In this document: one piece after another, positions 15,924-43,562 of the stretch
How the letters are laid out: each line of letters opens with the position of its first letter
Numbering within the stretch: the first letter of the stretch is position 1
Assembly: GCA_016198125.1 (NCBI GenBank)
Contig: JACQJG010000019.1
Location: 1 to 61,911, forward strand
Reading direction: 5' to 3'
Length of the DNA: 61,911 nt
Origin: Candidatus Iainarchaeum sp.
Lineage (GTDB): Archaea > Iainarchaeota > Iainarchaeia > Iainarchaeales > VGJJ01
Notes under the pieces: model-generated
Seen by the model: the letters and a program-made list of their open reading frames with translations, nothing else
Told to the model about the DNA's origin: nothing
The model's database searches: none
Program-made: the position numbers and the translations under genes

Positions 15924-17279
15924 ATGGAAATGACAAAAGTGCGGTTCTTGGGAGCATGCAGAGGCGTTGGTCGGAGTTCGTTCTGGTTTTTCCATGGAAA
16001 TTTGAATGTGCTGTTGGACGCGGGCATGGATGTGGGGGCTGAAGGGGAAAGCAGGTACCCCTTGTTGGACGACCAAGACATTCCGCGTTTGGATTTTTTA
16101 ATTGTAAGTCACGCCCACTTGGACCATTCCGGGTACATTCCGTATATGGTCAAACACGGGTTTAAGGGCATTATTTTATGCACGCGCGGAACAAGGGATG
16201 TAATGGAATTGCTGTGGTTGGATGCGGCGCGCATTGGAAAAGAAAACAAGGATGCCTTGTACGGGGAAAAGGACGTGACAAAGACGCTAAAACGCATTCG
16301 GGCAGTGGAGTATCATCAGCATGTGCGTTTGGGCAAAGGGGTTGGACTGGAATTCCTGAATGCAGGCCATATTTTGGGAAGCGCGTTGGTGGTATTGGAA
16401 TTTGACGGAAAAAAATTTGTGTACACCGGGGATTTTTCCGGAAAGGAAACGCATTTGTTTCACCGCTTTGAACGCCCGCCAAAAACGGATTTTCTCATGA
16501 TGGAGTGCACGTATGCAGGCACCGACCAGGTGCTTCCCTCTACTCCAAACGCAAGCCATGAGCTTGCAAAACAGGTAAAAAAGGCTTTGGAGCGCAAAGG
16601 GTCTGTGTTGATCCCAGTGTTTGCTGTTGGAAGAGGACAGGAAATCATGCTGGCATTGGCCCAGGCCATGGAATCAGGTTTTCTCCCGCGAGTGCCTATT
16701 TGGCTGGATGGGATGATCAACAAGGCCACGGATGCGCACGTGCGAAACGTGCTCCAATTAAGAGAAAGCATTGCCAAGCGCATTTTGCTTGCAAAATCCA
16801 ACCCGTTCAAGGCAAAATTCTTTCGCGTGCCCAGTTCCAAGGAAAAAAGGGAGGTATTCGCTCAGCAGGGAATCGTGCTCGCGACTTCAGGCATGCTTAC
16901 TGGGGGGCCTGCACGGTTGTACTTGGAGCGCTTTGCGCCGGATGCGCGCAACATGCTCATACTTGTTGGATACCAGGCCCATGGAAGTTTGGGCCGCACG
17001 CTTGCAGAGGGCGCGCGCATGGTTGAAATAAGGAAGCGCGTGGGGGTGAAGCGCGTACACGTGCGCATGGACGTGCAGAGCGTGCATTTTTCCGGGCATG
17101 CAGATTACCCGGGGTTGGTGAATTTCGTACGGGAAGCCCAGCCCAAAACCGTTTTCCTTGTTCATGGAGAGCATAAGAAAATGGAGGCATTCAAAGGAGT
17201 GGTGGAGAAAAAGTTTAAGGCCCGCGTGCTCATTCCTTATTTGGGGCAAACGGTTCCGTTGGAGGGAAAAGGGTTTTGA
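15924..17279 (+). CDS. MBL-fold beta-CASP ribonuclease (aCPSF-like, no KH domains)
   Basis: FLGACRGVGRS, SHAHLDHSG, AGHILGS, YTGDF, IPVFAVGRGQE, ATSGMLTGG, FSGHAD, LVHGE. Confidence 0.93.
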   Translation: MEMTKVRFLGACRGVGRSSFWFFHGNLNVLLDAGMDVGAEGESRYPLLDDQDIPRLDFLIVSHAHLDHSGYIPYMVKHGFKGIILCTRGTRDVMELLWLDAARIGKENKDALYGEKDVTKTLKRIRAVEYHQHVRLGKGVGLEFLNAGHILGSALVVLEFDGKKFVYTGDFSGKETHLFHRFERPPKTDFLMMECTYAGTDQVLPSTPNASHELAKQVKKALERKGSVLIPVFAVGRGQEIMLALAQAMESGFLPRVPIWLDGMINKATDAHVRNVLQLRESIAKRILLAKSNPFKAKFFRVPSSKEKREVFAQQGIVLATSGMLTGGPARLYLERFAPDARNMLILVGYQAHGSLGRTLAEGARMVEIRKRVGVKRVHVRMDVQSVHFSGHADYPGLVNFVREAQPKTVFLVHGEHKKMEAFKGVVEKKFKARVLIPYLGQTVPLEGKGF

Positions 17280-17680
17280 ATGCAAAAGGCCAAATTGGTT
17301 TTGAGTACCTGGTTTTGACCGGGTTTTTGCTGCTGATCATTGCATTGGTGTTTGCGTATTCATTTGTTTCGTATTCGCAGGCCATTCAAAGCCAGAAGGC
17401 AGAGGCTTCGTTAAATGCAATTGTGGGGGCAAGCGATTACGTGTATGGGCGCGGCAATGGAAACACGTTGCTCGTGGATATTGAAGTTCCGGAAGGCGTT
17501 TCATCGTTTCAGGTTCTGGACAACATTGTTTCCATGCGCGTGAGTGGCGCATTTGGTTCTTCGGATTATTTGAGAACCTCCAAAGCCGCTTTTGTGCCTG
17601 CTTCTTTGTCCACTTCCAGCGGGCCGCGCACCCTTAAAGTGGAAGCCGTGGATGCAAACGTGCGCGTGACCGGGGTGTAA
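17276..17680 (+). CDS. Class III signal peptide minor pilin
   Basis: KG/QIGFEYLVLTGFLLLII with E at +5; TTG start overlaps the RNase stop. Confidence 0.85.
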   Translation: MNAKGQIGFEYLVLTGFLLLIIALVFAYSFVSYSQAIQSQKAEASLNAIVGASDYVYGRGNGNTLLVDIEVPEGVSSFQVLDNIVSMRVSGAFGSSDYLRTSKAAFVPASLSTSSGPRTLKVEAVDANVRVTGV

Positions 17681-17684: not shown

Positions 17685-18041
17685 ATGCGTGCCCAACTCG
17701 TGCTTGAGATTGTGGTGGGGGTCGTAGTAATCCTGCTTGTTTTTGTGGGCGTGCTCCTGGTGGTAGGCCAACAGGGAGAAAGCTTGCGCCGCACGGAGAC
17801 AAGCACGCTTGAAAGTCAAACGTGCCGGGGACTTGCGCACGCCATTGAAAGCGTGTATGAAGGCGGGCCTACCAGCGAAGTGCGTGTACAACTTTCGTTG
17901 GATGCGAACATTCAGACTGGTTTTATTCTCGTAGGGGAAACGTTTTGCACGGCGCATGCCCAAGTAAGCAATGCCAGTCTTTCTGCCGGCCAGGTGCGCG
18001 TGCGCAATGCAAGCAGTGTTGTTGAGGTGTCCAACACGTGA
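17685..18041 (+). CDS. Class III signal peptide minor pilin
   Basis: RA/QLVLEIVVGVVVILLVF. Confidence 0.82.
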   Translation: MRAQLVLEIVVGVVVILLVFVGVLLVVGQQGESLRRTETSTLESQTCRGLAHAIESVYEGGPTSEVRVQLSLDANIQTGFILVGETFCTAHAQVSNASLSAGQVRVRNASSVVEVSNT

Positions 18042-18517
18042 AAGGCAGGGGGCAGGTCAGCCTGGTAGATGCATTGGCTGCGTTTTTTGTATTCCTTTTG
18101 GTGTTTGCAGGGTTAATGGGCATTACCGCCCAGTTAAACCATTCAAGGTATGCACAAAATGTTCAAGCCGACCTTGAGTTTTATGCCGTGCAGGGCCTTG
18201 CAAGGCTTACCCAAACACCGGGACTTCCATTAAGTTGGGACTCAAATACTATGACTGTTTCAACCCTTGGACTGGCGTTCAAGCCAGGGGTTTTAAGCAT
18301 GTCCAAAGTCAATGCGTTTGCGTCCATGGATTACAATACGGCGCGCACCGCTTTGGGAGTTAACGGGTATGATTTTTTCTTTTCCTTGGATGGCGTGCAG
18401 GATTATAATGTTGGACTGCCGTTGTATGCCACGGGCCAGCAGGCTTCGGCACAAACAAGTGTAAGCATGAATGGGGGAATCGGCATTGCACGGCTTTACG
18501 TGTACCAAGTCAAGTAG
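18038..18517 (+). CDS. Pilin-like protein (class III signal, D near +5/+6)
   Basis: RG/QVSLVDALAAFFVFLL; TPGLPLSW...LGLA motif. Confidence 0.82.
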   Translation: MKGRGQVSLVDALAAFFVFLLVFAGLMGITAQLNHSRYAQNVQADLEFYAVQGLARLTQTPGLPLSWDSNTMTVSTLGLAFKPGVLSMSKVNAFASMDYNTARTALGVNGYDFFFSLDGVQDYNVGLPLYATGQQASAQTSVSMNGGIGIARLYVYQVK

Positions 18518-21263
18518 GGGTTTGGCGTTCAGCGTGGATGTTCTCCTTGCCCTTGTTTTGGTGGTGAGCGTGCTTGTTTTTGTTTCAGCTCCCAAGCCAT
18601 TGGAATCAGCCTATCAAGGGAATCTTCAAACCGCGGGAGAGGTGGACAGCGTTTTTTCCACGCTGAATGCAGGCGGCTTGCTTGCATCCCAAGTGGATGC
18701 AAACGCTTTTACGCAGCTTGCATTGGACAACATTTACGCGCAGGCGCGTACGCTCATTCCAAGCGGATTGGACTTTAATTTAGGCATGCGTGAATACCTG
18801 TTGGACGTGAATGCGTGCAGGCAGTTTCAAACGTTTTCCGGGTGTTTTCCGGATGCCAACTCTTCCCTGTTAACCAAAACGGTTTCTCTGGCTTCTCCTG
18901 TAAAAGACTTGGTGCATGGAAAAAAGTTTTTCCTTGTACAAGAAGACCAGAGCGCGTGCACTTCCATTCCGCAGTTTAGGGGCGTGCTTCCAACGTGGTG
19001 GCATTCCGTATCTTACTACACGCCCGGCAAGGCCTTGCTGGCCAGCGACGTTAACATTACTTTTGACGTGAATGTGTCCCCTTCTCCTCCATTGGAGTGT
19101 GATCAAAATATTACAGTTACATTGTCTGTGGATGTCCCCCCGGGAAGCCGAAAACCAGTGGACATTGTAATGGTGCTGGACAGGAGCGGAAGCATGAGTT
19201 GGAATGGCCAACTGTCAACGACCAATGCACAAGGGGTTTTCGTTCAAGCCCCTTACACGTATCTTGCAGACGGTAGTGCAGGCCTGCGCATCATTGACAC
19301 GACTGCTCCTGAGCTTCCAAGCCTTTTATCAACGTTTAACACTCCTGGTTCTGCCACTGGAGTGTATGTGGACGGAAGCTATGCGTATGTTGCAGATTAT
19401 GACCAGGACCTGCGCATTGTGAATATTTCAAACAAATCCGCGCCCACTTCTACCGGGGCTTGGACTATTGGGGGCAGTGGGCGTGCGTATGATGTGTTTG
19501 TGCGAGGAAATTATGCGTACGTTGCCCATGGAACGGATGGATTGCGTGTCATCAACATCACCAATAAATCCAGCCCCACGCTTTCTGGCACGTATAACTC
19601 GCCCGGAACTGCGCGCGGGGTGTGGGTGGATGAAAACAGCACGTATGCGTATGTTGCAGACGGTGGAAGCGGCCTGCGCATGGTGAATATTTCAAACAAA
19701 TCCGCGCCCACAAGCGCAGGCGTGTGCTACAATTCCGGGGGATGCAATATCAGTGCGGGAACGGATTACAAGGTCACCGTGCAGGGAAACTATGCCTTTA
19801 TGGCAGACGGCACCAGCGGACTGCGCATCATTGACGTGTCCAACGTTGCCAGTCCAGCCCTTACAGCCACTTACAATACGCCTGGCGAAGCATTTGATGT
19901 GAACATTGTGGGAAACACCGTGTATGTAGCCGATGACACGTCCCTGCAGGCCATTAACGTGGCCAACAAAGCCAGCCCGGCGCTTACAAAGTCTTATCCC
20001 AATCCGTATGCGTATTTTGGCGTGTCCATTGCGGGAAGTTATGCGCACATTGCAGGCGATTCCATTGGAGGCATTCCCGGGCTTTTTACCGTTGACCTGG
20101 TAAACGGCCAGAAACTGGCCCAGGCCAAGAATGCAGCGGTTACATTTGTGGATTTCAATGGCTGGAATCCAATCCAAGACCAAATGGGGTTGGTGTCTTA
20201 TTCAAGTTCGGCCACTTTAGACCACCCACTGGATAATGATTTCAACGGCGTAAAAGCGGATATCAACGCGCTGGTAAGCAGTGGGGGAACTGCCACTGGA
20301 ACTGCCATCAACACTGCTACTACAGAGTTGAATGGCCCCAACCATAATCTAAATTCGCTTAAGTTTCAAGTGCTTTTGTCGGATGGTCAAACCAACACCG
20401 GGGCATCCTCTTCCGCGGCAGCCACCACGGCGGCAAACAGCGGGATTGTGATTTACACGATTGGGTTTGGAGCGGATGCAGATGAAGATGAATTGCAGAC
20501 CATTGCAACCCTTACGGGGGGAAAATACTATTCGGCAACGGATGCAAATGTTTTGGAAGAAGTGTATGCCCTTATCGCACAAGAAATACAGGTCATTGCC
20601 AATGACGCCAACATCCTAACGCCCATACCCAGTGGAACCGTGGTAGTGGATATTAATGGCGGAACGCTTGTAGACGGGCAAATCATATTCGATGTTAATA
20701 ACCTGGCTAATTTGGATCCGTGGATTGTAAATTACACGTTCAACATTCCCTGCAGTTCCCCTTTGGCATGCCAATCAAGTGTCATTTCGGTGCCTGGGAG
20801 TGGGACGACTTTTACTTACATAGATGGGAATGGAGTAACCCAAGTCGTGGACTGGAATGTGTTTGAGGTTGGAACATTCAAGTACAGGGACTTGAATGTG
20901 GACGTTTACTCTGGAACCATTCTTTCGCAGGACAGTGTGATATTGGATGTAAACGTGTCCAACATTGGTTCGCTTGACTCCAATTCCACCACCGTAAATT
21001 TTTACTTGAACGACCCGGACGCAAACGGAACGCTTCTCGCCAGTGCAAGCGTTCCTGCCTTGTGCGCGGGATTGGACGCGAATTGCCTGGACTCAACGCA
21101 CAAGTTTTCCCAGAGTCTTTCCACGCAGGGAACGTTGTGGGCCAAGGTAAACCCCAATGCAGCGATCAACGAGTGCCCGTCCAACAACAAGGACTTCATT
21201 TACTGCTATGACACGCCCAGAACAAAGTATTACATACTGGAATACTGGGCATGGAAAAGGTGA
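18471..21263 (+). CDS. Pilin-like adhesin: class III-like N-terminus, vWA domain with inserted LVIVD repeats, C-terminal CARDB-like domain
   Basis: RG/LAFSVDVLLAL; DIVMVLDRSGSM MIDAS; YAYVAD...GLRIxxIS repeats; GGTATGTAI, LLSDG, IYTIGFG; VNP...INE...NN. Confidence 0.85.
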   Translation: MGESALHGFTCTKSSRGLAFSVDVLLALVLVVSVLVFVSAPKPLESAYQGNLQTAGEVDSVFSTLNAGGLLASQVDANAFTQLALDNIYAQARTLIPSGLDFNLGMREYLLDVNACRQFQTFSGCFPDANSSLLTKTVSLASPVKDLVHGKKFFLVQEDQSACTSIPQFRGVLPTWWHSVSYYTPGKALLASDVNITFDVNVSPSPPLECDQNITVTLSVDVPPGSRKPVDIVMVLDRSGSMSWNGQLSTTNAQGVFVQAPYTYLADGSAGLRIIDTTAPELPSLLSTFNTPGSATGVYVDGSYAYVADYDQDLRIVNISNKSAPTSTGAWTIGGSGRAYDVFVRGNYAYVAHGTDGLRVINITNKSSPTLSGTYNSPGTARGVWVDENSTYAYVADGGSGLRMVNISNKSAPTSAGVCYNSGGCNISAGTDYKVTVQGNYAFMADGTSGLRIIDVSNVASPALTATYNTPGEAFDVNIVGNTVYVADDTSLQAINVANKASPALTKSYPNPYAYFGVSIAGSYAHIAGDSIGGIPGLFTVDLVNGQKLAQAKNAAVTFVDFNGWNPIQDQMGLVSYSSSATLDHPLDNDFNGVKADINALVSSGGTATGTAINTATTELNGPNHNLNSLKFQVLLSDGQTNTGASSSAAATTAANSGIVIYTIGFGADADEDELQTIATLTGGKYYSATDANVLEEVYALIAQEIQVIANDANILTPIPSGTVVVDINGGTLVDGQIIFDVNNLANLDPWIVNYTFNIPCSSPLACQSSVISVPGSGTTFTYIDGNGVTQVVDWNVFEVGTFKYRDLNVDVYSGTILSQDSVILDVNVSNIGSLDSNSTTVNFYLNDPDANGTLLASASVPALCAGLDANCLDSTHKFSQSLSTQGTLWAKVNPNAAINECPSNNKDFIYCYDTPRTKYYILEYWAWKR
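19230..20100 (+). repeat. About seven LVIVD-type repeats; two share a 29-bp identical DNA segment (19419-19447 and 19683-19711)
   Basis: gtgaatatttcaaacaaatccgcgcccac occurs twice. Confidence 0.8.
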
Positions 21264-21270: not shown

Positions 21271-22275
21271 ATGGACAGGGGCATTCAAAGGTTAAACCAG
21301 CGCGGATTGTTTTTCACGCTCATGGCATTCCTGCTGATTGGAATTATACTGGCATACACTGCGTTAAATACACAGTCAGGATTTCAATCCAGTCAAAACA
21401 TTGCAGGAATTTCCGGTTTGGAAGGAGTAAAAGACTTGTTTGAAAACATTAAAAATACGGGTCTTGCCTTTGACACCAATGGAAGCCCTGACCTTGTAAG
21501 ACAGCGCGTGCTGCCGTTCAACTATTATTTCAGGGAAAACAGGGTGGGCCTGCAGCAAACCCTGCCCATTCCAAATGGGAAAATGGAATTGTATGTGGAT
21601 GTATTAAACGCATTGCGCGTACTGGCAGAGGACACTAATACTCTTCATGCATTCGATGGAAGCATCACCGATGTAAACGTTCCGGCCAACGCGCTTTGGG
21701 GTGGAAGCGCGAATCAACTTGTTTTTGATGTACTGCCCCAGTGCCTGCAGTATTTTGTACTGGACTCCAATGCCGCAGGGTTTTCGTTTTTATCCGCAAA
21801 ACACTGCACAGCAGATTACAACACAGTGTCATTAAAACGCGTGGACATCAATGTAAGCGTGTCAAATCCCGCAGGTGACTTCAATGCCATTGCATGTTCT
21901 ATGGATGGAAATTCTACGTGCCCTAAAAATGATTTCAATGCGCTCAACACATTGCCTTACTTTGATGCGAACATGGTTTTGGACGCGTGCCAAAAATGCG
22001 CGTTGGACCAAAGCATGCGCACTGTAAAAGGGCACTTTGACCCCGCAAAGACCAACACCATTACTCTTTCCTGTGCAGGAGCTTCTTGTGTAAGCCTCCC
22101 CTTGACCATCTCCCTGGCAAGCGGTCCCGGGTTCACGCACAACGGGGTTCCAGTAGACCTGTCGTTTAACCTTGTGTTTGACCAACAAGTGAACGGCTTT
22201 TATTTTCATGATGCAAATGTTTTGGTGAAAAAACCCGGGCTTGGAGTTTTAAAAGCCACGCAGGGGGACGCGTAA
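21271..22275 (+). CDS. Pilin-like exported protein, Cys-containing
   Basis: QRG/LFFTLMAFLLIGIILA class III-like N-terminus; start at ATG 21271 after GGTGA. Confidence 0.75.
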   Translation: MDRGIQRLNQRGLFFTLMAFLLIGIILAYTALNTQSGFQSSQNIAGISGLEGVKDLFENIKNTGLAFDTNGSPDLVRQRVLPFNYYFRENRVGLQQTLPIPNGKMELYVDVLNALRVLAEDTNTLHAFDGSITDVNVPANALWGGSANQLVFDVLPQCLQYFVLDSNAAGFSFLSAKHCTADYNTVSLKRVDINVSVSNPAGDFNAIACSMDGNSTCPKNDFNALNTLPYFDANMVLDACQKCALDQSMRTVKGHFDPAKTNTITLSCAGASCVSLPLTISLASGPGFTHNGVPVDLSFNLVFDQQVNGFYFHDANVLVKKPGLGVLKATQGDA

Positions 22276-23483: not shown

Positions 23484-24113
23484 ATGAAAAAGCACAAAAA
23501 GGCACGCGCACGTTCTGCCCATAAACGGCCGCATGCAACAAAAGGTTCTTCCATGAACGCGCACAGGCGTGCCAAAGTCAAACCATCAAAGCCCCTCCCC
23601 CCGCCAAAACTTTCCGTTAAAAAAAAGCATGGGAAATCGTTTTTATCTGCACTCCTGCCTAAACCGCGCGCTTCGCGCGGCCTTGAGCACGCGCCCATTA
23701 AAAAAAAGCCCTTGCGTTTGCACTTTCCCTCTTTTTTGCTCCACCCCAAAAAAACGCATGGGCATGGAAAAGCACTCCAACCTCCTGCCGTTCCTTTGAG
23801 GAATTTTCCTTCCGCTCCAAAAAGGGAAGGACCTTCCGGCAAAACAGTTAAAACAGGCCCGGCAGTATGGCATGAACAAAACGTTTCAAAGAGTTCCGGG
23901 GCTGGAGCCATTGTAACGGTGTATGACAACGTTCTTGACCTGGTGCGCCAAAAAAACGGCATTGCATTGAACGAACTCGCAAAACGAGTAAAACTCAAAG
24001 AAGACAAGCTCGTAGAAGAACTTCAAACCCTGGAAGACAATGGGCTTTTGGAAGTGCGCTATCCCCCGCTGGGCGAACCCAGGGTGTACGTGAAGGAAAA
24101 AAGTGAAGCGTGA
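23484..24113 (+). CDS. Protein with basic disordered N-terminus and C-terminal winged-helix-like domain
   Basis: TVYDNVLDLVRQKNGIALNELAKRV...LEDNGLLEVRYP; stop overlaps the ATPase start region. Confidence 0.65.
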   Translation: MKKHKKARARSAHKRPHATKGSSMNAHRRAKVKPSKPLPPPKLSVKKKHGKSFLSALLPKPRASRGLEHAPIKKKPLRLHFPSFLLHPKKTHGHGKALQPPAVPLRNFPSAPKREGPSGKTVKTGPAVWHEQNVSKSSGAGAIVTVYDNVLDLVRQKNGIALNELAKRVKLKEDKLVEELQTLEDNGLLEVRYPPLGEPRVYVKEKSEA

Positions 24114-27100: not shown

Positions 27101-27153
27101 CCCCGGATGAAGTCATAAAAATGGCGCGAAGCAATGCAAAGCTGCCCAGGTGA
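24103..27153 (+). CDS. Type IV pilus/type II secretion ATPase (VirB11/CpaF/FlaI family) with intein
   Basis: SGGTGSGKT Walker A, TIED..TRE Asp box, LRMRPDRIVVGEIR Walker B, TGH...TVHA His box. Confidence 0.93.
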   Translation: MKRETMAGEKGKVIEKYTVQAEIPLEVEIHESGEEFVRVYALKYPSFGPGTRALLNELRTKIITDTSISAEKMLDLKFVETLKAQFMEKANALLKKELPEASEDVRNKIRVILIHDMLGLGHIEFLLNDGNLEEIVVNTASEPVWVYHKKHGWLKTNVFIGNEAETVNYSSIIARRVGKQITILTPLLDAHLVTGDRANATLFPISSKGNTITIRRFRRDPWTVTDFIKASTASVDVMALVWLAMQYESNIIVSGGTGSGKTSLLNVLMPFIPPNHRIVTIEDSVSGEAEILYEYRGKVFKSTVGELVDGLAEDDSIEDCMLENENDIRIPSMNPQGRIEWSKPSHFIRHRVKKDLLKITLKSGKTIEVTPDHSLFTLNTEGHISSVSGLEVKEGTWLATPRKVEWKGTNVAFDLRPHLNDLETFKGCFVKSLEIRPILQACKAPLLRRFPKATLNNAIRKNLASVEMLQLADYTPQSGWICSRLGTKIPLDIEVDEDLATFAGLWLADGCYDKNSTLVSIVEPEARVFVERVAERFGVRTKMHSDGITLMINSKPLKQFFQGVMGLDGNAYTKKMPSWVFRLEKPLIAAVLCGYFSGDGWVRKNDIAIRSSSKQLLKDVQTLLLPFGIPLRVKWKLLKDRTFEAHISTAKFLREFANQVGFVINKKTLACAKWENAQSHDVSDVIPLPKKLYVPLKKVIKNEIGRTRSYYSWKSYLGTYSLSNIGRKTLQNLAVRYVNELPPIYGELAFNDLLWDSVVSVERVPFHGFVYDFSVPGNESFVCDNVVCHNTREIQIPEFLHWVPLTTREPNAEGKGGVNMLDLLVNSLRMRPDRIVVGEIRRQREAEVMFEAMHTGHSTYTTVHANTAEETIRRLISPPIEVPVSMLEAVHLNVVMYRNRRMGMRRILQVAEFIPEKSGSESNYQLKPNILYRWKANGDRIEKYSESIRLNDELNLHTGLNASEIAEDLADRRRVLEWMVKNDIRSIGDVGRVMAQYYHAPDEVIKMARSNAKLPR
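24952..26472 (+). mobile_element. Intein with LAGLIDADG homing endonuclease (507 aa)
   Basis: Starts SVSGEAEI after TIED; VTPDHSLF block B; GLWLADG and GYFSGDG; ends VYDFSVPGNESFVCDNVVCHN/T. Confidence 0.92.
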
Positions 27154-27157
27154 GTTC

Positions 27158-29170: not shown

Positions 29171-29626
29171 TTAGATTGTTCCCCTGCAAGACCCAGTTGC
29201 AGTGAGGTTTGTTAACGACCCTGCATCGTAGGTGAGCGTGTACGTAAGCGAATACGCCCCTGAACTCAGGTCATTGGCTGGGTTTACAACCAAAGTTCCT
29301 GTTTGATTGGGCGAATAATTTTGGTCTCCGCCGAACGCAATTGCCCCCGAAGTATAGGTCGTACTGCCACCATGGGTTCCAGTCACTGTGGCAGCTGTGA
29401 AGTTAACGGCTTGACCTGTTTGGTTGACCAATACAAGTTCCGCTTGTCCAGCCACTACATTGCTTTGCGTCACCGTGAACTGGCCAAACTTAGCATCACA
29501 CTGATCGCCTTGAATGGTGCTCGGGTTAATGAGAATCACCAACGCGGCAACTGCAATGACAATGACTACCAGCGCCCACCCATAAGTCATGAGGTATTCC
29601 AGCGCGGATTGTCCTTTTCGATTCAT
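29171..29626 (-). CDS. Probable major type IV pilin (class III signal peptide)
   Basis: MNRKG/QSALEYLMTYGWALVVIVIAVAAL; strong AGGAGG RBS; separate transcription unit. Confidence 0.9.
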   Translation of the reverse strand: MNRKGQSALEYLMTYGWALVVIVIAVAALVILINPSTIQGDQCDAKFGQFTVTQSNVVAGQAELVLVNQTGQAVNFTAATVTGTHGGSTTYTSGAIAFGGDQNYSPNQTGTLVVNPANDLSSGAYSLTYTLTYDAGSLTNLTATGSCRGTI

Positions 29627-33111: not shown

Positions 33112-36100
33112 ATGGCACATAACCTTGTTTTCTGGCGGGCAGTTTTGAGCGTATTCCTTCTCGTGTTTTTTTTAAACCCCCACGCATACGACTTGCACGC
33201 CCCGCTTTCCTGGGAAAATCAAAAAAGCAGGGAAGGCATTCCGCTCAAAATTTTATTTCAGGAAAGCCTTGACCGTTCTCCTGAGGAACGTTCTTCTGAA
33301 ACCGCCCTGGACCGGCCAGATGTTCTTCCGCCTCCCTCCAGACCTGCTGAAACCAGACCGCAAAAGGCTCTTGTGCTTGGGTCGAACGCGTTTCATTTCA
33401 TGGGCATTCGCACGCAGGAAGGTTCTGTTATTGCCAGCGGAAGCAGGCCCTTGCAGGTCGTGCCTGGATTTTATGATATAGACGTTGTCTTAATGGAGGC
33501 ATGGGTTAAAAGTGCGCGTGGAAAAAACGTGTTGTTGAACAAGGATGCAATGGTGTTAGAATACCATGAAGACCCCGAATGGATTCCTACCTACCCTGAA
33601 GGGGATTCCAATTTCAACACGGAATGGGTGAAAACAGTTGGGTTAAACCTCGCCGGGGAAGCTGGGGAATGGGCCTTTGAATGGGCGCCTGTGCCGGGAG
33701 CCAATGAGGCATGGGCGTGCACTGCCTGGTCTTCCACTGAGCGCACGTGCAGGGAATGGAAGCAAGTCGCGCGCATAACCATTGACGTTATGGACACCAA
33801 CACGTTTGCGTTTACCACGCGTGAAAGGAAAGTGTTTGTTGGTTTTTTGCACCGCAGGCCATTGGAAGAACTTCCACTCTCACGAGATTCCAAGGAAAGC
33901 GTGCTAAGCATGGAATTAAATCCAGTGGAACCCGTGGATGTAAATCAGTCCTTCAGGGTGAATGCCTTGATTGGATGCGCGGAAGCAGACTGCAATTACG
34001 TGTATGCAGAAGCACAGTACTGTTCTCAAACGCGACGAGAGTACTGCCGGCCGTTTGAATGGAAGCCCTTGGAAAGCGAAGGGTTGTTCCAGTCTTTGAC
34101 TGAAAATCCTGTAGAGTTAACCCTTGAAAAAGGCCAGTCGCGCACGGTTTCATGGAATGCCAAAATCCTGCAAAGTGGAGTGTACTGGGCGCGTGTGAAC
34201 GCGCGCGCGCCCAACGCTGAACGCATTGAATCCGAATGGCAGCGCATAGAAGTCAAGCCAAAAATACCGGGTGCAAACACCTTGGGGATTGGGGAAGAAG
34301 TAGCGCTTGCCTTGCACCGGGACAAGGACGTTTTTACGGTTGGAGAAAACCCTTCGTTTACCTTGCGCATTTTGTCCAGGCAGGAAGGCCGGTTATTGGA
34401 AGCGCGCAGGAAAGCAGGGTTGGAAAATGCAGCGTACTTTCAGGGCCTGCCGTTTCAATGGCCAGCGTTTCCAAATCCTTTTGAAAGGGCGGAAGACCGC
34501 ATATACAGGGAAATTGTTGAACGCAAGGAATTGGCTTTGGACATTGAATTAGTCGATGCTTCCGGTACAAAGACGCAGTTAATGCCTGCAGATTATAACA
34601 TACAAGACTTAAACGCGCGCATGATTAAGCTGAGTTTGAATGCGTTGCGCAGCCTGCGGGGGGGCGCGTACACGTTAAACGTCAGTCTTCCTTCAGGCCC
34701 CCTTGGCCAGCGTGCAACCACTGCCAGCGAAAACTTTGCATGGGGCGTTGTGGCAGTAAACACCAACAAGCCCACCTATCACCCGGGAGAACGTGCGGAA
34801 TTCACTATTGTAGTATTGGATTATGGCAGTTTTGGCGTGAAAGGCGCAGCCGTTGAAATGACGCTTGAAACTCCAAACGGAAAAAAAGAAATGTTTTCAA
34901 CCCAAGACCGCACCATTCTTGAAACCACTACCCCTGGAATTTACATGGCATATTATTCTCCGCGCGTGGAAGGAACTTTTCATGTGAGCGTGCATGCAGC
35001 TGGAACGAATGTGAATGCAGGCATTACAACGACCTTTGATGTTCGTTCAAGGTACGCGTTTGACATTGAGCGTTTTACTCCGACCATGATTAATCCTGAA
35101 GTGCAGCCCATTCAAATGGACATTAAAATTACTCCGCTCATGCGCGGGTTTGACGGGCTTACCGTGAAAGAATTTCTGCCCGCGGACCTGAATGTGGTTG
35201 AAGCCAGTGAAGCCGCTCAGGTAGAGGACCGCAATGGGGTCAAGGTAATCACATGGAACTTTCACAACCGGAATGTGTTGGACCCTGTGCGCATTCACTA
35301 CCAGTACACGGTTCCAAAGGACAAAAAGCCCTGGCTGTATTACCTGGGGCCGTTGCTTATTGAATGGGATCGAAACAAGGCATTTGAGGAGGCGCGCACA
35401 TGGATGATTGCCATTGACGCCAATGCCCTGGCCATTAGATTTTTTTACCGAAAGCCCACTTCGCCTGACTTTGCGGACTACAATTTTTACTTCAACGAAC
35501 CCAAACCCAACGATGCCAATGCGGCTACAAGCGATACAAATGGCGACCCCCTGCCCTTCATCGACGCCAATGTAAACGACATTAACGTGGCTCACTCCCA
35601 AAGCGGAAATAACACCCTTGCACGTACTTACCTGCTGGGAGCGAGCCCGATTGGAATGTACAAAGGCATTTCGTTCGTGTCCCCTCCTTTGGTGGCGCAA
35701 ACCGTGGCCAGTGGGACGTGGGAATTGGCCATCAACTGCCTGGTAAACACAAACCGCGCGCGCCCCAAGCTTGCAGCATATGGATGGAAGACCACGGATA
35801 CAAACAGCACGCGCATTGTTACCCCTCTTTCTCCTACAGTCGCGTGCCCCACCACCATTGGAGGGGGGCGGTCCATTACCAGCACGGGGAATGCAATTAC
35901 ATTTAGCCGGGGAGACAAAATAGTCTTCGAAGCCGACCTCAATAAAACAGCAGCAGCCGCGGTGGATATTACACTCAACTACAATGCCCTTGACACGAAT
36001 TCCGGGGCGAGAGCAGACTCCAATTCCCTTGCGCCCGCGCACATCCGCATTGCAGGTGATTTAAATGGAACGATTTCCAACCCCGCAAGCGATGCAAACA

Positions 36101-37890
36101 CGTACACGCGGGGCGTTGCGTTCATCGTGGATGGAAACACGGAATGCAGGAACTTCAACTGTGATTCCGTGGACACAAACCTGCAATGGTGCACTGGAGC
36201 GGCGTGCACCGGATTTGCGGACATTAACACGAGCACGAGCGCGCCCTTGTACATTACTGCTGGCACCATTCCTGACACCAACGTGAACGTGACCGATGGA
36301 AACAAGGACATTGTGACCTGGACGGTGGTGGCTAGCCAAAGTGGCACCTATGAATTGCGTTTGCGCATGGACGCCAATGCCTCCGGGGACTTTAACACCA
36401 CTTTGGGAACTGACCGCACAATTACTGTAAACGCGGGAAACCTGGACATTAATGTCACGTATTGCCAGGGGTCTCCTGCCCCCAGTTCAACGTGTTCCAG
36501 TGCAGACAATTATGATGTCAACCATCAAATGGACTTCAATGTGAATGCGCGCATCCATTGCCGGGACACGAGTTCTACAAACTGTGGAAGCGTAGATGCA
36601 AACATTCAATGGTGTTCAAGCATTGGGTGTTCAGGTTTTGCGGACATGAATGCGGGTTCTGGCGCATTGAGAATCGTAACAGGGTCTAATCCGGACCAAA
36701 ATTCTTCTTTGAATATCGGCCAAGGGTACGATGCCAATTGGGTAATACGCGCGTACACGGATGGAAACTATGAACTGAGAGTGCGCGTGACAGGAACCAC
36801 TTCGGATACCAACACCACAAACGGAACAGGCAACACCATCAATGCAAAAACAGCCGCTGTTCCGGCCATTGCAAAGCTTCGCGTTTTCCAGGGCGGGAGC
36901 CTGGATTTGAACACTGGAATCATTGTGTGTGATATGACTGAAAGCGCGTTCGGCGAACAGCCCCCTGGGAAAACCTGTGATTACAATATTGTAAAGGACG
37001 CGCGTCCTTACCGAATAGAAATGCGCGTGTGCAACGATGTTTCAACCGTTGGAAGCTGGACGGAAATCAAAGATGTAAATCAGGCTCAAACCTCCACCTT
37101 TATCAAGCCCGCGAATCTCACCCAGTGCGCCCATGGGGACAGTGGAACGCTGACAGCCATTGGCTCGTGCTCGGCCACCACCAGCCCGTCCAAAGTAATC
37201 ATTGACGGAAATGGAGTCATGCTGGGCCCACCAGTGGTGGCAGGCACGCGGGACAATGGAAGCTGTGAATGGTTTGCGTATACTTTCAATGCGGATGGGG
37301 CCATTGCAGGGGCAAATGCCAATACTACTGTGCGCACAACCACTGACACGAATGTCGCGGTAAGCGGAACCATAAACATTAACAGTCAAGGAAGCGCGGA
37401 TACCACGTTTGTTTTAACCCTGCCCAATGCGTGCTCGGAAGGAAAAGGATGCACTACCGGGGGTTGCACGCAGTGTACACGGTGCTACTTTGACTTGAAT
37501 GCAAATACTGGCACAAAAATAAGCTGTGAAGGCCAAACGTCCTTAACTCCATTCTTCCAGTTTGACAATCAGAGCAACGCCAATGTGGATTTGAATTGGC
37601 TGGCGGACGTGAATGGAACCATTAATTCTTCCATTTCAAAGTTCAGGTTGAAGGCCAGCCAGAAAGACACAGGGTATGAAAGCACGTGCACAGACACGCA
37701 ACCCCCTACTACCACGTGCGTGTATGTTGAAAGCCCCACCGATGTAAATATTGCGGTAAACATCCGTAACTTGAGTCCGACTTCAACGCCTTCCACGGTG
37801 GACGCAAATGCATGGTTTTGGACGGATGCAACAAACTTTTACAATGCGGACAACAATTCATTGGACATAAACAGTTATGCCACGGGATGA
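33112..37890 (+). CDS. Giant exported multidomain protein (MG2-like domain, Cys-containing Ig-like repeats, DxN-rich C-terminal half)
   Basis: Signal peptide; TNKPTYHPGE MG2-like start; three related C...QYC/QWC...W......G.Y..R repeats; no C-terminal TM. Confidence 0.85.
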   Translation: MAHNLVFWRAVLSVFLLVFFLNPHAYDLHAPLSWENQKSREGIPLKILFQESLDRSPEERSSETALDRPDVLPPPSRPAETRPQKALVLGSNAFHFMGIRTQEGSVIASGSRPLQVVPGFYDIDVVLMEAWVKSARGKNVLLNKDAMVLEYHEDPEWIPTYPEGDSNFNTEWVKTVGLNLAGEAGEWAFEWAPVPGANEAWACTAWSSTERTCREWKQVARITIDVMDTNTFAFTTRERKVFVGFLHRRPLEELPLSRDSKESVLSMELNPVEPVDVNQSFRVNALIGCAEADCNYVYAEAQYCSQTRREYCRPFEWKPLESEGLFQSLTENPVELTLEKGQSRTVSWNAKILQSGVYWARVNARAPNAERIESEWQRIEVKPKIPGANTLGIGEEVALALHRDKDVFTVGENPSFTLRILSRQEGRLLEARRKAGLENAAYFQGLPFQWPAFPNPFERAEDRIYREIVERKELALDIELVDASGTKTQLMPADYNIQDLNARMIKLSLNALRSLRGGAYTLNVSLPSGPLGQRATTASENFAWGVVAVNTNKPTYHPGERAEFTIVVLDYGSFGVKGAAVEMTLETPNGKKEMFSTQDRTILETTTPGIYMAYYSPRVEGTFHVSVHAAGTNVNAGITTTFDVRSRYAFDIERFTPTMINPEVQPIQMDIKITPLMRGFDGLTVKEFLPADLNVVEASEAAQVEDRNGVKVITWNFHNRNVLDPVRIHYQYTVPKDKKPWLYYLGPLLIEWDRNKAFEEARTWMIAIDANALAIRFFYRKPTSPDFADYNFYFNEPKPNDANAATSDTNGDPLPFIDANVNDINVAHSQSGNNTLARTYLLGASPIGMYKGISFVSPPLVAQTVASGTWELAINCLVNTNRARPKLAAYGWKTTDTNSTRIVTPLSPTVACPTTIGGGRSITSTGNAITFSRGDKIVFEADLNKTAAAAVDITLNYNALDTNSGARADSNSLAPAHIRIAGDLNGTISNPASDANTYTRGVAFIVDGNTECRNFNCDSVDTNLQWCTGAACTGFADINTSTSAPLYITAGTIPDTNVNVTDGNKDIVTWTVVASQSGTYELRLRMDANASGDFNTTLGTDRTITVNAGNLDINVTYCQGSPAPSSTCSSADNYDVNHQMDFNVNARIHCRDTSSTNCGSVDANIQWCSSIGCSGFADMNAGSGALRIVTGSNPDQNSSLNIGQGYDANWVIRAYTDGNYELRVRVTGTTSDTNTTNGTGNTINAKTAAVPAIAKLRVFQGGSLDLNTGIIVCDMTESAFGEQPPGKTCDYNIVKDARPYRIEMRVCNDVSTVGSWTEIKDVNQAQTSTFIKPANLTQCAHGDSGTLTAIGSCSATTSPSKVIIDGNGVMLGPPVVAGTRDNGSCEWFAYTFNADGAIAGANANTTVRTTTDTNVAVSGTININSQGSADTTFVLTLPNACSEGKGCTTGGCTQCTRCYFDLNANTGTKISCEGQTSLTPFFQFDNQSNANVDLNWLADVNGTINSSISKFRLKASQKDTGYESTCTDTQPPTTTCVYVESPTDVNIAVNIRNLSPTSTPSTVDANAWFWTDATNFYNADNNSLDINSYATG

Positions 37891-38798: not shown

Positions 38799-39497
38799 AT
38801 GGTTCTCCGGGCGGTTCAGCACCAACGCATTGCAGGCATTGGAGTGCTTTTACTGTTGGCCTTGCTGCCTTTGGCAAGCGCAACGCTTTCAACCACCACC
38901 ATGACCTGGGTGGCTGGAACCAACAAAAGTTTTACTACTACCTATGGAGCGGCGTGCTCGGGTACAAGCTTTTTTTTCGTGGAAACCGATGCCAACGTGA
39001 ACTTTGGAGACGCGGACTCGGATGGAAACTGGGCCATGGTGCGCCCTAATTCAAGTTCTGGAGGTGGCACGACCACTTTTTGCCAAAGCACGGCGCTCAG
39101 GCCCATCGTGCTCACCAACAACGGGAATTCCACTTTGAACATTGATGGAAACTTTTTAGTGGACTTGAATAGCACAGACGTAAACATTCAATTAAAAGTG
39201 TGGATGGCCACTGCAACCGGGTGCGGAGTAGGACCCGATGGAAACGGCTTTGGAGGATGGGAAAAACCCTGCAGCGTGGTTTCAACGACGGGCGCGGTCA
39301 CCATTTCAACGTGCAAGGATTTTAACTCGTCTGTGGACACGGTTGCAAGCAGGCTCATCAGTTCACTTCCAATCGGGGACAGCAATGGATTGTGTTTTAG
39401 CGGGGAAACCCTCCAAGGCCCCCAAACACCTGGAGGAGCTGGCGGAAACATTAGCTCTGGAAACCATCCCCTGCAATTCCAGATTGGAAACAGTTAA
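38799..39497 (+). CDS. Exported Cys/Thr-rich protein, candidate fibre subunit
   Basis: Sec signal ending ASA; mature N-terminus TLSTTTMTW; PIVLTNNGNSTLNI. Confidence 0.8.
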   Translation: MVLRAVQHQRIAGIGVLLLLALLPLASATLSTTTMTWVAGTNKSFTTTYGAACSGTSFFFVETDANVNFGDADSDGNWAMVRPNSSSGGGTTTFCQSTALRPIVLTNNGNSTLNIDGNFLVDLNSTDVNIQLKVWMATATGCGVGPDGNGFGGWEKPCSVVSTTGAVTISTCKDFNSSVDTVASRLISSLPIGDSNGLCFSGETLQGPQTPGGAGGNISSGNHPLQFQIGNS

Positions 39498-40533: not shown

Positions 40534-41532
40534 ATGCATTATTTGGGGTCAACGCAAATGGTGACAGCGTGGAGTTCAGGCGTTAAACTGGGAATTTTTG
40601 CGCTTGCACTTGGACTGCTGGTGGTAGCCATTAAAGTCCAGCAGTTGAATGCAGGGGAATCCAGCCCTTCTATGCACTGGCAACAAGGCATTCTTGCGCA
40701 AAACCCCGCAGTTTCACTTAAAGTCAATGAGGGGGCAAGCCAAGACTTTCCAAGCCACGTGCTCAGAAAGTATTATTTCAAAGAAGTACTCCAGCCCAAA
40801 AGAAACGAATACCAGTTGCTTGAACGCGCAAGCGAGTTTCTCAAAGTCCCCATTTCAACGCTTAAAAAAGAGTGGGGCATTGAAAGCGAGGAAGGCCTTT
40901 TTTCACGCTTGCCCGGGATTCCTATTGATTTCAGCGAGACCGTGTACGCGCTGCGCAGTACAGCCACGTATGCAAGCATTTCAGAAAGTTATTACGAGCA
41001 ACCCGAATTTTATCCTTCTTTTTTACTGGAAGGCATTCTGCGCTGGGCGTATCCAAGCCCTTCAGAAAACCCTCTAAATGGGTATGAAGGATATGCCATT
41101 GAAGAAGAAATTCCGCTTGAAGTGAACGCAGGGAAATCTTTTTCTGTGGACACGTACTGGCATGCCGCGTATGGCGTGAAAGCATACCAAGGATTTTCCC
41201 TTGTACGGGCTCCGAATGCGCCGTCTGAGATAAAAGTTCAATTTGAGTCTTCTGCCACGTTGCTGGCCCCGGCGTGGCCTGTATTTGAAAAAGGCTGGGC
41301 GCAAAAAGTGCGCGTAAAAGGCAGTATTCATCCGTCTGCTTTGCCAGGGCTTTACACCCTTGAACTGCAAGCCGTAAAACCTGCCGAACAAGAAATTAAA
41401 AACTGGAAAATACTTTACGGGATTGGATTGCCTGGAAAACAGTACACGGATGCAGCAACCCAGATTCCGCCTGCGCAGAACAGTTTAAAGGTGCTAGTAC
41501 GCGTACGTAACAAAGAAGGCGGTTCTTCATGA
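40534..41532 (+). CDS. Membrane-anchored 'QPEFYP' family protein, paralogue 3
   Basis: TM; IPIDFS, YYEQPEFYPSF, HAAYGVKAYQG, WAQKV. Confidence 0.8.
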   Translation: MHYLGSTQMVTAWSSGVKLGIFALALGLLVVAIKVQQLNAGESSPSMHWQQGILAQNPAVSLKVNEGASQDFPSHVLRKYYFKEVLQPKRNEYQLLERASEFLKVPISTLKKEWGIESEEGLFSRLPGIPIDFSETVYALRSTATYASISESYYEQPEFYPSFLLEGILRWAYPSPSENPLNGYEGYAIEEEIPLEVNAGKSFSVDTYWHAAYGVKAYQGFSLVRAPNAPSEIKVQFESSATLLAPAWPVFEKGWAQKVRVKGSIHPSALPGLYTLELQAVKPAEQEIKNWKILYGIGLPGKQYTDAATQIPPAQNSLKVLVRVRNKEGGSS

Positions 41533-43562
41533 AACGCAGGGCTTTCACGAATAAAAATTTGTTATTCACCTCCTTTCTCTATTTCACGGCCTTTTTTTGG
41601 CTGAGTGGAACTGCATATGCCACACTTGCCACTACCACAACCACGTTTGCCACCGGGCCGTTTACTTCCCTTTCCCTTGTATTGGACGCCAATCAAACAT
41701 GCTATAACACGCCCAATTTCACGACCACGCTCACAGTTACAGTAAAAAAACAGCCCAGCAACCTGCTTGAAGAAGATGCCAATGTCACTGCCACTGTGAC
41801 TGTTCCAAGTGCAAGCAGTGCGAGTACAAGCATTTCGTTCACAGACCAAAACAATGGAACCTATACCAAGTCCTATCTCTTTGACGTGAATGGAACGTAC
41901 AAGTTCAACGTGCATGCAGTCCAGGATGCAAATTCAAGTGTTACTGGAGACGTGAATGCGTACATTTACGTGGGAGACTTTAACATGGACATCAATTTCA
42001 CGAACAACAATGTTTCCTATACTGCTGGAGACAGTGGGTCTATTCAAAACCATGTAAACAATTCGGATGGAAATCATTTCGCGGGATTGACTGCCACCAC
42101 CACCCTTTACTATCCGGGCGGAAGCACGTTTGTAAGCGGGCAGTCCATGACCGATCAGACAAATGGAGACTATGTGTACGCGTTCACAGTTCCAAGCACG
42201 ACTGGCACGTATGCGGCTACTTCCACGTTTACCTGCGGGTCCAATACAGATTCCAATTCCGGTGGAGCATTTACTGTAAGCGCTTCCTCCAGCGGCAGTA
42301 CTGGAAGCACGGGCGGTGGAGCCGGGGGCGGTGGGGGGGGTGGAGGCGGCGGAGGGGGCGCAGGACTCAACGTAGATGTGAATGATATTATGGTGAGCCC
42401 CCTGGAAGTTGGAGTGCCTGCCACCATTCAAGTGGTTTTGTACAACAAGGGATTCTTTGACCATGACGTGTGGCTGGTTACCAGCATCCAACAAGAAGGA
42501 AAAGAAGTATTCAACTCCGAAGACCGCGTGTACAACCTTCCCCTGGCAAAAAAAACCACGTTCACTGTACCCAAAACATGGATTCCTGAAACCGCAGGGC
42601 CCTTTCTTGTATCTGTAGAGGCCTTAAGCCCTTCCAAACAATCCACGCTGGACAATTTGGTTGAAACCCTTGACATTACAGGGGTTTACAATTACACGCT
42701 CAATGTAGAATGCGCAACCCCCACGGTTGCCCAAGGAAGCCTGGGAACATTCCATGTCACGGTAACCAACACTGGAACCTATGGAAGCGCGCTCAACCTT
42801 GAATACTCCATTCTTGGAAGCACTGGAAACACCATTAAACTTGGAACTGTCCCAGTACAGGTTTTGCCCAGCCAGCAAACGCTGCTTACATTTGATGAAA
42901 TCATTCCTGAAGGCGAACCCCCTGGACTGCACACGTTCAAGGCAACGCTTAAATTCAATGGAACCTCCAACGAAGGCCAGTGCACGTTCACTGTAAAAGA
43001 ACCGTTTGACTATTACTCCGAATTAGTGGAAAACCTGCAAGAGCAATTGGATGAGTTAAAAGAAGAAACAATGGAAAAAGGAGAGCAGGGGTATGTTACT
43101 ACCTTCATTGAGCAACAGCTTGAAGAATTGAATGAAAAATTGGCTGATGCAAGGAAGCGCGTGCAATCCCAAAAATTTGAAGGACTGCAAAAAGACTTGT
43201 CTGAAATTCAAAAGGATTCAAGCGCACTCAAAGCATTATTGGCAGGGGTTACTGAACGCGCATTTTTAAGAACCCAAACCCTTGCAAATATTTTACTGGC
43301 ATTGTTGCTCCTCTTACTGTTGTTGTCTGTTTATTATGGTGCAAGCAGACCTGAACGCGAAAGCCATGCCGAGGGCGTGCGCACGCATATAGATGCATTC
43401 CTGGGCCTGCGACCCCCTTTAACAGGAACTGAATTGGATTTGGAGAAGAAAAAAGAAAGGAAGCATGCCGAAAAAAATAAAAAGAAGGTCCGTGAAAGTC
43501 TATTGAACTTCTTGGGAATCAAAAACGGGAACGGGTTTAAAGAAAAAGGAAAAGGGGCATGA
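41529..43562 (+). CDS. Exported protein: Ig-like domains, poly-Gly linker, CARDB-like domains, coiled coil, C-terminal TM and basic tail
   Basis: Signal ending AYA; mature N-terminus TLATTTTTF; GGGAGGGGGGGGGGGGAG; ILLALLLLLLLLSVYY. Confidence 0.82.
   Translation: MKRRAFTNKNLLFTSFLYFTAFFWLSGTAYATLATTTTTFATGPFTSLSLVLDANQTCYNTPNFTTTLTVTVKKQPSNLLEEDANVTATVTVPSASSASTSISFTDQNNGTYTKSYLFDVNGTYKFNVHAVQDANSSVTGDVNAYIYVGDFNMDINFTNNNVSYTAGDSGSIQNHVNNSDGNHFAGLTATTTLYYPGGSTFVSGQSMTDQTNGDYVYAFTVPSTTGTYAATSTFTCGSNTDSNSGGAFTVSASSSGSTGSTGGGAGGGGGGGGGGGGAGLNVDVNDIMVSPLEVGVPATIQVVLYNKGFFDHDVWLVTSIQQEGKEVFNSEDRVYNLPLAKKTTFTVPKTWIPETAGPFLVSVEALSPSKQSTLDNLVETLDITGVYNYTLNVECATPTVAQGSLGTFHVTVTNTGTYGSALNLEYSILGSTGNTIKLGTVPVQVLPSQQTLLTFDEIIPEGEPPGLHTFKATLKFNGTSNEGQCTFTVKEPFDYYSELVENLQEQLDELKEETMEKGEQGYVTTFIEQQLEELNEKLADARKRVQSQKFEGLQKDLSEIQKDSSALKALLAGVTERAFLRTQTLANILLALLLLLLLLSVYYGASRPERESHAEGVRTHIDAFLGLRPPLTGTELDLEKKKERKHAEKNKKKVRESLLNFLGIKNGNGFKEKGKGA

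Follow-up and report, generated by a model that had tools for sequence, protein, structure and literature searches.

Introduction

PglB, the oligosaccharyltransferase of Campylobacter, recognizes the extended sequon D/E-X1-N-X2-S/T, in which either Asp or Glu is accepted at position -2 of the modified Asn; in the C. lari enzyme, the -2 Asp is bound by Arg331, located 12 residues after the loop-5 Glu319. In archaea, the S-layer glycoprotein of Halobacterium salinarum is reportedly glycosylated at Asn-2 independently of the +2 hydroxyl, a case for which we know of neither a -2 Asp rule nor a proteome-wide motif. The canonical archaeal enzyme, AglB, glycosylates N-X-S/T, as set out in two reports (PMC12153357, PMC9715654). 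The present work concerns a stretch of 61,911 nucleotides (hereafter the window; contig JACQJG010000019.1, assembly GCA_016198125.1) from Candidatus Iainarchaeum sp., of the phylum Iainarchaeota, whose type IV pilus-like locus and downstream genes encode exported proteins crowded with the triplet D-x-N (Asp, any residue, Asn). This enrichment is real and strong, and it is a trait of the phylum, wider than first noted. We propose, with a rough probability of 0.45, that D-x-N may serve as a lineage-specific N-glycosylation acceptor motif read by the canonical AglB.

According to this proposal, an enzyme would read linear D-x-N on unfolded chains outside the cytoplasm, most likely the single canonical AglB, which would N-glycosylate the Asn. 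Asp at -2 would be the main determinant, S/T at +2 being helpful and dispensable. Under selection, a high density of sites would persist on giant surface proteins, on an S-layer-like protein and on the pilus adhesins, and some secreted enzymes would be kept free of them. Reading by an enzyme is suggested because the signal is exported-only, runs in the N-to-C direction, excludes Pro, is coupled to S/T, belongs to a single lineage, turns over in position and is depleted in one protein family.

The likeness to PglB lies in the acidic residue at -2 of the Asn (here Asp only, 2.0 to 3.1 times in exported open reading frames, ORFs), in the avoidance of Pro at both X positions, in the over-representation of S/T at +2 alongside Asp, and perhaps in a basic residue shortly after the catalytic Glu of loop 5 in the transferase. 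By contrast, Glu is not enriched here, S/T at +2 is not obligatory and is absent from two thirds or more of the D-x-N sites, the enzyme is an archaeal, STT3A-like AglB among whose hits PglB does not figure, and the site density is far above that of Campylobacter glycoproteins. Canonical archaeal N-glycosylation is resembled in that a single AglB containing WWDxG is encoded next to a gene for glycan initiation, in that the targets (pilins, adhesins and a protein of S-layer type) are those commonly glycosylated in archaea, and in that one pilin-like protein has 5 NxS/T in 158 residues; it differs in that NxS/T is not enriched here and the signal lies N-terminal of the Asn. The H. salinarum Asn-2 case is a precedent for archaeal N-glycosylation that tolerates the loss of S/T at +2, although it concerns one site at a protein N-terminus.

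Materials and Methods

The genome under study (G000) comprises 846 kb in 20 contigs and is estimated to be 71% complete; the window is its contig C12. The phylum was represented in the search set by 215 genomes, nearly all within one order. A greedy longest-ORF rule yielded 914 ORFs in G000, which were assigned to classes by a Kyte-Doolittle N-terminal hydrophobic segment and not by a trained signal-peptide predictor, a crude method. Expected D-x-N counts were derived from the Asp and Asn content of each individual protein.

Results

D-x-N Enrichment on Exported Proteins

Counting reproduced the figures of a first-pass annotation of the window, i.e., 49, 23, 11, 8 and 11 D-x-N in the proteins of 1592, 930, 334, 232 and 677 residues, respectively. 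It also bore out the concentration of sites in the C-terminal half of the giant, where 38 of the 57 Asp of residues 791-1592 belong to D-x-N, the presence of S/T at +2 in about a quarter of the giant's sites (11/49) and the occurrence of the triplet in small pilins (DANV, DANI, DSNT, DYNT, DYNV and DQNY). The genes concerned are the following:

17276..17680, + strand: small pilin-like protein, 134 residues, with an N-terminal hydrophobic segment; 1 D-x-N (DANV); no significant Pfam family
17685..18041, + strand: small pilin-like protein, 118 residues; its single Asp lies within DANI
18038..18517, + strand: small pilin-like protein, 159 residues; 3 D-x-N (DSNT, DYNT, DYNV)
18471..21263, + strand: adhesin, 930 residues; Pfam LVIVD beta-propeller repeats, vWA and CARDB; 23 D-x-N against 4.7 expected
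21271..22275, + strand: pilin-like protein, 334 residues; long N-terminal helix and beta-rich domain; 11 D-x-N, 23 Asp
33112..37890, + strand: exported giant, 1592 residues; 49 D-x-N against 7.2 expected, 38 of them in residues 791-1592
38799..39497, + strand: exported protein, 232 residues; 8 of 11 Asp within D-x-N; no Pfam family
41529..43562, + strand: protein of 677 residues; N-terminal Ig-like domains, Gly-rich linker, coiled coil and C-terminal membrane anchor; 11 D-x-N

In the last of these proteins, all 11 D-x-N are confined to the first 300 residues. Composition alone, which the first-pass annotation had named as an explanation that would refute its idea, did not account for these numbers, since none of 5000 composition-preserving shuffles attained the observed D-x-N count for any of the five proteins (maxima of 17, 12, 7, 5 and 7 for those of 1592, 930, 334, 232 and 677 residues). 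Within the window, the 16 exported-class ORFs contain 86 D-x-N against 15.7 expected, and the 40 cytoplasmic-class ORFs 22 against 18.7.

The same pattern was found throughout G000, with an observed/expected ratio of 2.01 in the exported class (243 sites, 163 ORFs), 1.36 in multi-pass membrane proteins (97 ORFs) and 0.95 in the cytoplasmic class (226 sites, 617 ORFs). Control patterns in the exported class remained at or below expectation: NxD 0.80, ExN 0.84, DN 0.91, ND 0.81, DxxN 0.94, DxD 0.95 and NxN 0.84. The signal is thus directional, and specific in spacing and for Asp; compared with ExN, NxD and NxS/T, as the first-pass annotation had advised, D-x-N alone is raised in the exported class. 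The claim that enrichment is restricted to exported proteins holds for the contrast between exported (2.01) and cytoplasmic (0.95) classes, but not in the sense that every exported protein is enriched. Indeed, the distribution is bimodal: 176 D-x-N, against 35.3 expected, fall in 10 of the 914 ORFs, of which 8 are exported, 1 is a membrane protein, 1 belongs to neither class and 0 are cytoplasmic. Among these 10 are an S8 subtilase containing CARDB domains, an S-layer-like protein and one that has repeats of the MopE type; on the richest surface proteins the triplet is enriched about fivefold.

Two simple sources of the signal were discarded. The codons used for Asp (GAC/GAT) and Asn (AAC/AAT) at D-x-N match those of the other Asp and Asn of the same proteins; this ordinary codon use rules out a motif at the DNA level and therefore points to selection at the protein level. 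A common domain was rejected likewise, BLASTP among 14 D-x-N-rich proteins giving only 2 weak pairs.

Taxonomic Range

In G001, a genome of the same family of which 400 kb was sampled, the ratio reached 3.10 in exported and 0.91 in cytoplasmic ORFs, and 13 proteins were enriched with p < 1e-3; G163, from another family, gave 2.61 and 0.75, respectively. Samples of 100 kb, which are noisy, ranged widely (G007 1.39, G032 1.20, G019 1.22, G027 1.57, G021 1.33, G028 0.45, G025 2.42 and G037 2.02). Random genome samples are misleading because the rich proteins are few and clustered, hence our reliance on orthologous families. All 30 fragments of adhesin orthologues, from 30 genomes, were enriched (observed/expected 2.1 to 9.3; p < 0.01 in 29). 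Orthologues of the 334-residue pilin-like protein, of about 320 residues, adjoin the adhesin gene in 11 other genomes and are D-x-N-rich in every pilus locus examined, and nine fragments of relatives of the giant contain 200 D-x-N against 41.7 expected.

Outside the phylum, 75 vWA proteins contained 209 D-x-N against 178.4 expected. Exported ORFs around vWA genes gave 1.07 in other archaea (37 ORFs) and 1.23 in bacteria (112 ORFs), against 4.44 in Iainarchaeum-like loci (23 ORFs), and where other lineages have homologous CARDB and vWA positions, these do not read D-x-N. Three bacterial vWA outliers (L221, L212 and L216, from a gammaproteobacterium, an unnamed bacterium and Kuenenbacteria) showed D-x-N at 2.0 to 3.2 times expectation; their excess consists of repeats of a Cys-rich unit containing C-D-D-G-N, a plain repeat origin.

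A separate observation concerns G033 (1.24-Mb genome), where a single exported ORF of 5471 residues lies near the pilus locus (contig C1, about 871.9-888.3 kb; L142-L143). It contains 73 D-x-N against 32.9 expected, and 103 NxS/T.

Sequence Context of the Sites

Hydrophobic residues are favored at -3, -1 and +1 of the Asn in D-x-N; the Asp, the Asn and the +2 residue therefore share one face of an extended chain. Pro is avoided at both inner positions: at -1 and +1, it occurs 1 and 3 times among 176 sites in G000 (8.6 expected each) and 4 and 1 times among 300 sites in G001 (11.6 expected each), where its numbers at -3 (11) and +3 (14) are at background level. Taken together, the 476 sites give a ratio of 0.2 at -1 and likewise at +1, and values close to 1.0 at the flanking positions. 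No such double exclusion was seen for control pairs in the same proteins (NxD 1.3/1.7, SxN 1.6/1.2, TxT 0.5/0.4).

S/T at +2 was coupled to Asp at -2. In the ten richest G000 proteins, 57 of the 176 Asn with Asp at -2 (32%) have S/T at +2, against 18% of other Asn and a background of 17%. The odds ratio of this coupling was 2.07 in exported proteins of G000 (p 7e-6), 3.0 in membrane and 0.92 in cytoplasmic proteins; five Iainarchaeum-like loci gave 2.35 (p 4e-4), these being orthologues of the same proteins and hence not independent. In G001, 69 of 300 sites have S/T at +2.

Exported proteins show no enrichment of plain NxS/T. Observed/expected ratios in the exported classes of G000, G001 and G033 were 1.08, 1.23 and 1.16 for NxT and 1.09, 1.18 and 1.02 for NxS, with cytoplasmic values of 0.94 to 1.15. 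Asp at +2 to +5 of the Asn is not enriched either (ratios 0.8 to 1.4), and Gly at +1 reaches 1.5 to 1.6 times background (the D-x-N-G hairpin). Lys makes up 2.1 to 3.8% of D-x-N-rich proteins; residues 791-1592 of the giant contain 19 Lys against 38 D-x-N. The site density in rich regions is about 1 per 20 to 30 residues.

Turnover, Structural Setting and a Depleted Family

Twelve family-level adhesin orthologues contain 91 D-x-N positions, of which 63 are limited to one or two sequences and 4 are shared by 7 or more. These orthologues have 205 sites in total against 57.7 expected; the private sites alone (80) exceed the number expected for all sites, and no control pair behaves in this way. 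Density is maintained while positions shift. In the family of the 334-residue protein, several sites are kept in 10 to 12 of 12 orthologues, and some positions are thus constrained. An AlphaFold2 model of that protein (mean predicted local distance difference test, pLDDT, 70.9; > 80 in most of residues 150-300) places its 11 D-x-N sites in strand middles, strand starts, a hairpin turn and loops, with no single context. A Foldseek search of this model against the PDB gave no match at E <= 0.001, the best having E 0.067 and a template modeling (TM) score of 0.12.

One protease-like family of exported giants, InhA-like, is depleted in D-x-N (26 against 46.9 expected over six members from 6 genomes, which are related and not independent). 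Within family f1, 7 of 18 genomes have it, but none of the 23 other families sampled does, and it may be a later acquisition. The member encoded in G000 (L162; contig C13, 3222-8957) is an exported protein of 1911 residues with matches to InhA-like MAM, CarboxypepD_reg and Big_1; it contains 2 D-x-N against 8.2 expected, and its relatives L294-L298 are depleted too.

AglB and Its Paralogue

A single canonical AglB is encoded in G000 (705 residues; contig C2, 27739-29853). It matches PF02516 (STT3) with 76.3 and 76.7 bits against a cut-off of 24.5, and AglB_core-like with 27.1 bits; its best solved relative is human STT3A (1.8e-18), and PglB was not among its 13 single-sequence or 18 profile hits (E up to 1 and 10, respectively). 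A gene of the Glycos_transf_4 family (GlcNAc-1-P-transferase-family) starts about 400 bases downstream of aglB. The motif reads WWDEG; the WWD triad, which the first-pass annotation had advised inspecting for an alteration, is intact. The fourth residue of WWDxG was rejected as a determinant, since it varies (E, Y, V, N, Q) while the phylum is D-x-N-rich throughout. A D-x-x-x-K pattern (D574, K578) is nearly invariant in AglB relatives, with Arg at 578 in G000; compared by eye with the yeast pattern, it may represent the DK motif (DxxK) of the +2 pocket.

External loop 5 of AglB contains [ST][VI]GEE...K, with a Lys (Lys381) 11 residues past the Glu. All 23 AglB sequences aligned have this Lys, and so do G208 and G214, from two other orders of the class. 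At the same offset, neither Lys nor Arg occurs in the three outgroup AglB proteins examined, from Bathyarchaeia, Woesearchaeota and Micrarchaeota. The Lys may lie near the position of PglB Arg331.

G000 also encodes an STT3-like paralogue of 484 residues (C4:50338-51789, minus strand; L170/L171), which is without the C-terminal domain. Its relationship to AglB is supported by profile comparison (hhalign probability 98.65%, E 4.8e-16); it has SAWDRGH where AglB has WWDEGH, the first Trp of the +2 pocket being lost. In Pfam, it gave weak PMT_2 and Dpy19 matches only, and no sequence match was found among solved structures. Full-length relatives were found in 17 of 17 genomes of family f1 and 9 of 9 of family f2, and not in f3, f17, f24 or f11; at E < 1e-50, none was found in G033 (99% complete), G040 (95%), G131, G132 or G163. 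The adhesins or exported proteomes of these five genomes are D-x-N-rich, and a role of the paralogue as the D-x-N reader was accordingly not supported; the comparison of its presence with genome-wide enrichment covers few genomes.

The Pilus-Like Locus and Its Neighbors

The archaeal type IV pilus-like locus occupies 17.2-31 kb of the window and also includes a KaiC-like ATPase. In addition to the pilin-like and adhesin genes given above, it contains:

24103..27153, + strand: T2SSE-type pilus assembly ATPase with an intein; Pfam T2SSE, Intein_splicing and LAGLIDADG_3; not D-x-N-rich
27134-28096, + strand: T2SSF-type platform membrane protein 1; Pfam T2SSF
28096-29103, + strand: T2SSF-type platform membrane protein 2; Pfam T2SSF
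29171..29647, - strand: pilin-like protein, 158 residues; 5 NxS/T (NQT, NFT, NYS, NQT, NLT) and 1 D-x-N (DQNYS)

The adhesin has the metal-site motif of its vWA domain, D-x-S-G-S with D237 and S241 invariant, near residue 240, and the Pfam vWA match covers residues 544-699; because of this separation, the LVIVD beta-propeller appears to be inserted within the vWA domain. With a vWA domain, a propeller and a place in a pilus locus, the adhesin may resemble bacterial PilY1.

Downstream of the locus, several smaller exported proteins accompany the 1592-residue giant. The last ~170 residues of the giant (~1410-1590; window 37330-37890) match the C-terminal ends of other giant ORFs of about 600 to 2700 residues in at least 15 related genomes, which suggests a shared module, possibly for anchoring or sorting. 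Three exported proteins of ~300-335 residues (37877-38773, 39498-40505 and 40534-41532) are interspersed among the D-x-N-rich genes; by eye they have Y-Y-x-Q-P-E-F-Y-P-[SG]-F in common and may be paralogues. No Pfam family was found for them (two of the three tested), and none is among the D-x-N-rich ORFs of G000. The translation of a 986-residue ORF (44315-47275) also looks, by eye, to be interrupted by an intein.

Discussion

The motif statistics of D-x-N, its taxonomic range, its positional turnover and the presence of glycosylation genes were established directly in this work. What selects the triplet has to be weighed among several explanations. D-x-N could be a non-enzymatic surface motif that binds a cation (Ca2+ or Mg2+), a host-surface ligand or ordered water, selected by habitat or lifestyle without any covalent change. 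We consider this unlikely, even though the alternation of Asp, Asn and the +2 residue with hydrophobic residues at -3, -1 and +1 would bring them onto one exposed strand face, some sites are kept in 10 to 12 of 12 orthologues, and one D-x-N-rich protein has MopE-type metal-binding repeats. According to one report, Ca2+ is an extracellular folding and assembly factor in archaeal cannulae and RTX adhesins, and the Ca2+ loops of cannulae and RTX BIg domains are also Asp/Asn-rich motifs of extracellular proteins only (PMC12518558). Those loops, however, form three-dimensional clusters conserved within a fold, whereas D-x-N occurs as single triplets that turn over, in a strict direction and with no accompanying acidic residues. 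A pair of side chains should work in either order, yet NxD stands at 0.80 against 2.0 to 3.1 for D-x-N, and DxD and NxN are below 1. Unlike in EF-hand or DxDxDG-like sites, no further acidic ligands occur at fixed spacing (DxD 0.95; no enrichment at +2 to +5) and positions are not conserved, only 4 of 91 adhesin positions being found in at least 7 of 12 families and 63 being private to 2 families or fewer. Finally, exported proteins at the vWA loci of other archaea and of bacteria are not enriched. The Ca2+ binding contemplated in the first-pass annotation is thus weakened by the lack of extra acidic ligands nearby, by turnover and by the mixture of strands, turns and loops in which the sites lie.

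Reading of D-x-N by another enzyme, or another modification of it, involving the short STT3-like paralogue, a different extracytoplasmic enzyme or an Asn cross-link, seems distinctly improbable to us. The paralogue is indeed encoded and has lost the first Trp of the +2 pocket, and sequon-like statistics would suit any reader of unfolded exported chains; but its full-length form was not found in G033, G040, G131, G132 and G163, whose adhesins are D-x-N-rich (exported ratio of 2.61 in G163), and no further candidate enzyme was identified. The Lys-Asn cross-link, also raised in the first-pass annotation, has lost ground, since intramolecular isopeptide domains pair a Lys with each Asn and cannot explain 38 D-x-N with 19 Lys in the C-terminal half of the giant. 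A local structural preference of beta-rich domains, such as an Asx-type turn or a strand cap, inherited without a separate function, is very unlikely. The common D-x-N-G hairpin does contribute to the signal, three bacterial vWA proteins owe their raised D-x-N to a Cys-rich repeat containing D-D-G-N, and 4 of the adhesin positions recur in 7 or more of 12 families. Such a preference should nevertheless appear everywhere, and ratios are 0.75 to 1.10 in cytoplasmic proteins and 1.07 to 1.23 in exported proteins of other phyla; the D-x-N-rich proteins have no detectable common homology (2 BLASTP pairs among 14), the 80 private adhesin sites outnumber the 57.7 expected for all, structural contexts are mixed, and homologous CARDB and vWA positions elsewhere are not D-x-N. 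The greedy longest-ORF calls and hydropathy-only classes would leave room for an artefact of calling, of classification or of composition, but this is scarcely credible given that expectations came from each protein's own Asp and Asn content, that 0 of 5000 within-protein shuffles reached the counts and that the result recurs in relatives fetched independently.

From a mechanistic point of view, the reading that we prefer is N-glycosylation of D-x-N by AglB; from these sequence comparisons we infer the modification of the Asn, AglB as the enzyme and a contact between the loop-5 Lys and the Asp. Several observations weigh against it. The WWD triad, to which the +2 hydroxyl binds in solved oligosaccharyltransferases, is intact, so that sites lacking S/T would have to draw binding energy from elsewhere, and Glu at -2, which PglB accepts, is not enriched (ExN 0.84 to 0.89). 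The +2 coupling is weak elsewhere (odds ratio 1.25 in G001, p 0.12, not significant; 1.23 in G163), and it could partly reflect an exposed beta-strand context, because G001 also shows an excess of V, F and Y at +2. No general enrichment was seen in the first 400 kb of G033 (1.13), in G187 (0.79) or in G028 (0.45), and the 155 exported-class ORFs of G000 outside the rich set contain 108 D-x-N against 94.2 expected (1.15). Several sites are conserved, in 10 to 12 of 12 orthologues, beyond what is usual for glycosites, and the 158-residue pilin-like protein (29171-29647) uses NxT. Lastly, the outgroup comparison for Lys381 covers only three AglB proteins. The first-pass suggestion that D-x-N may be modified without a +2 hydroxyl therefore stands in part: the triplet has the sequence-level properties expected of an enzyme-read motif, but AglB retains the WWD triad and the enrichment at -2 does not extend to Glu. 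The more specific proposal that D-x-N would be the main N-glycosylation signal of Iainarchaeota, its -2 Asp recognized by the Lys of AglB loop 5 with no need of a +2 hydroxyl, is advanced tentatively, as a possibility open to considerable doubt.

Literature on archaeal and DPANN N-glycosylation, on Diapherotrites and on Iainarchaeota surface proteins, as far as covered here, contains no description of a D-x-N motif; a 2024 J Bacteriol paper on N-glycosylation in DPANN archaea lies outside this coverage and may bear on the question. If D-x-N were indeed the main signal, the AglB of this lineage would be without archaeal precedent among oligosaccharyltransferases in having a bacterial-style -2 determinant, and without precedent in any domain in having a principal sequon that lies wholly N-terminal of the Asn. 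More generally, if D-x-N is a glycosylation signal, sequon rules would prove able to evolve inside the STT3 family, most glycosites of a whole archaeal phylum would escape prediction from N-X-S/T, and glyco-engineering would gain a natural enzyme with a short, +2-independent sequon. Even without a glycan, a directional tripeptide belonging to one phylum needs explaining, and it offers a simple sequence marker for such proteins. With one, the pilus adhesins and giant proteins of these ultra-small archaea would carry a dense glycan, which would bear on cell attachment.

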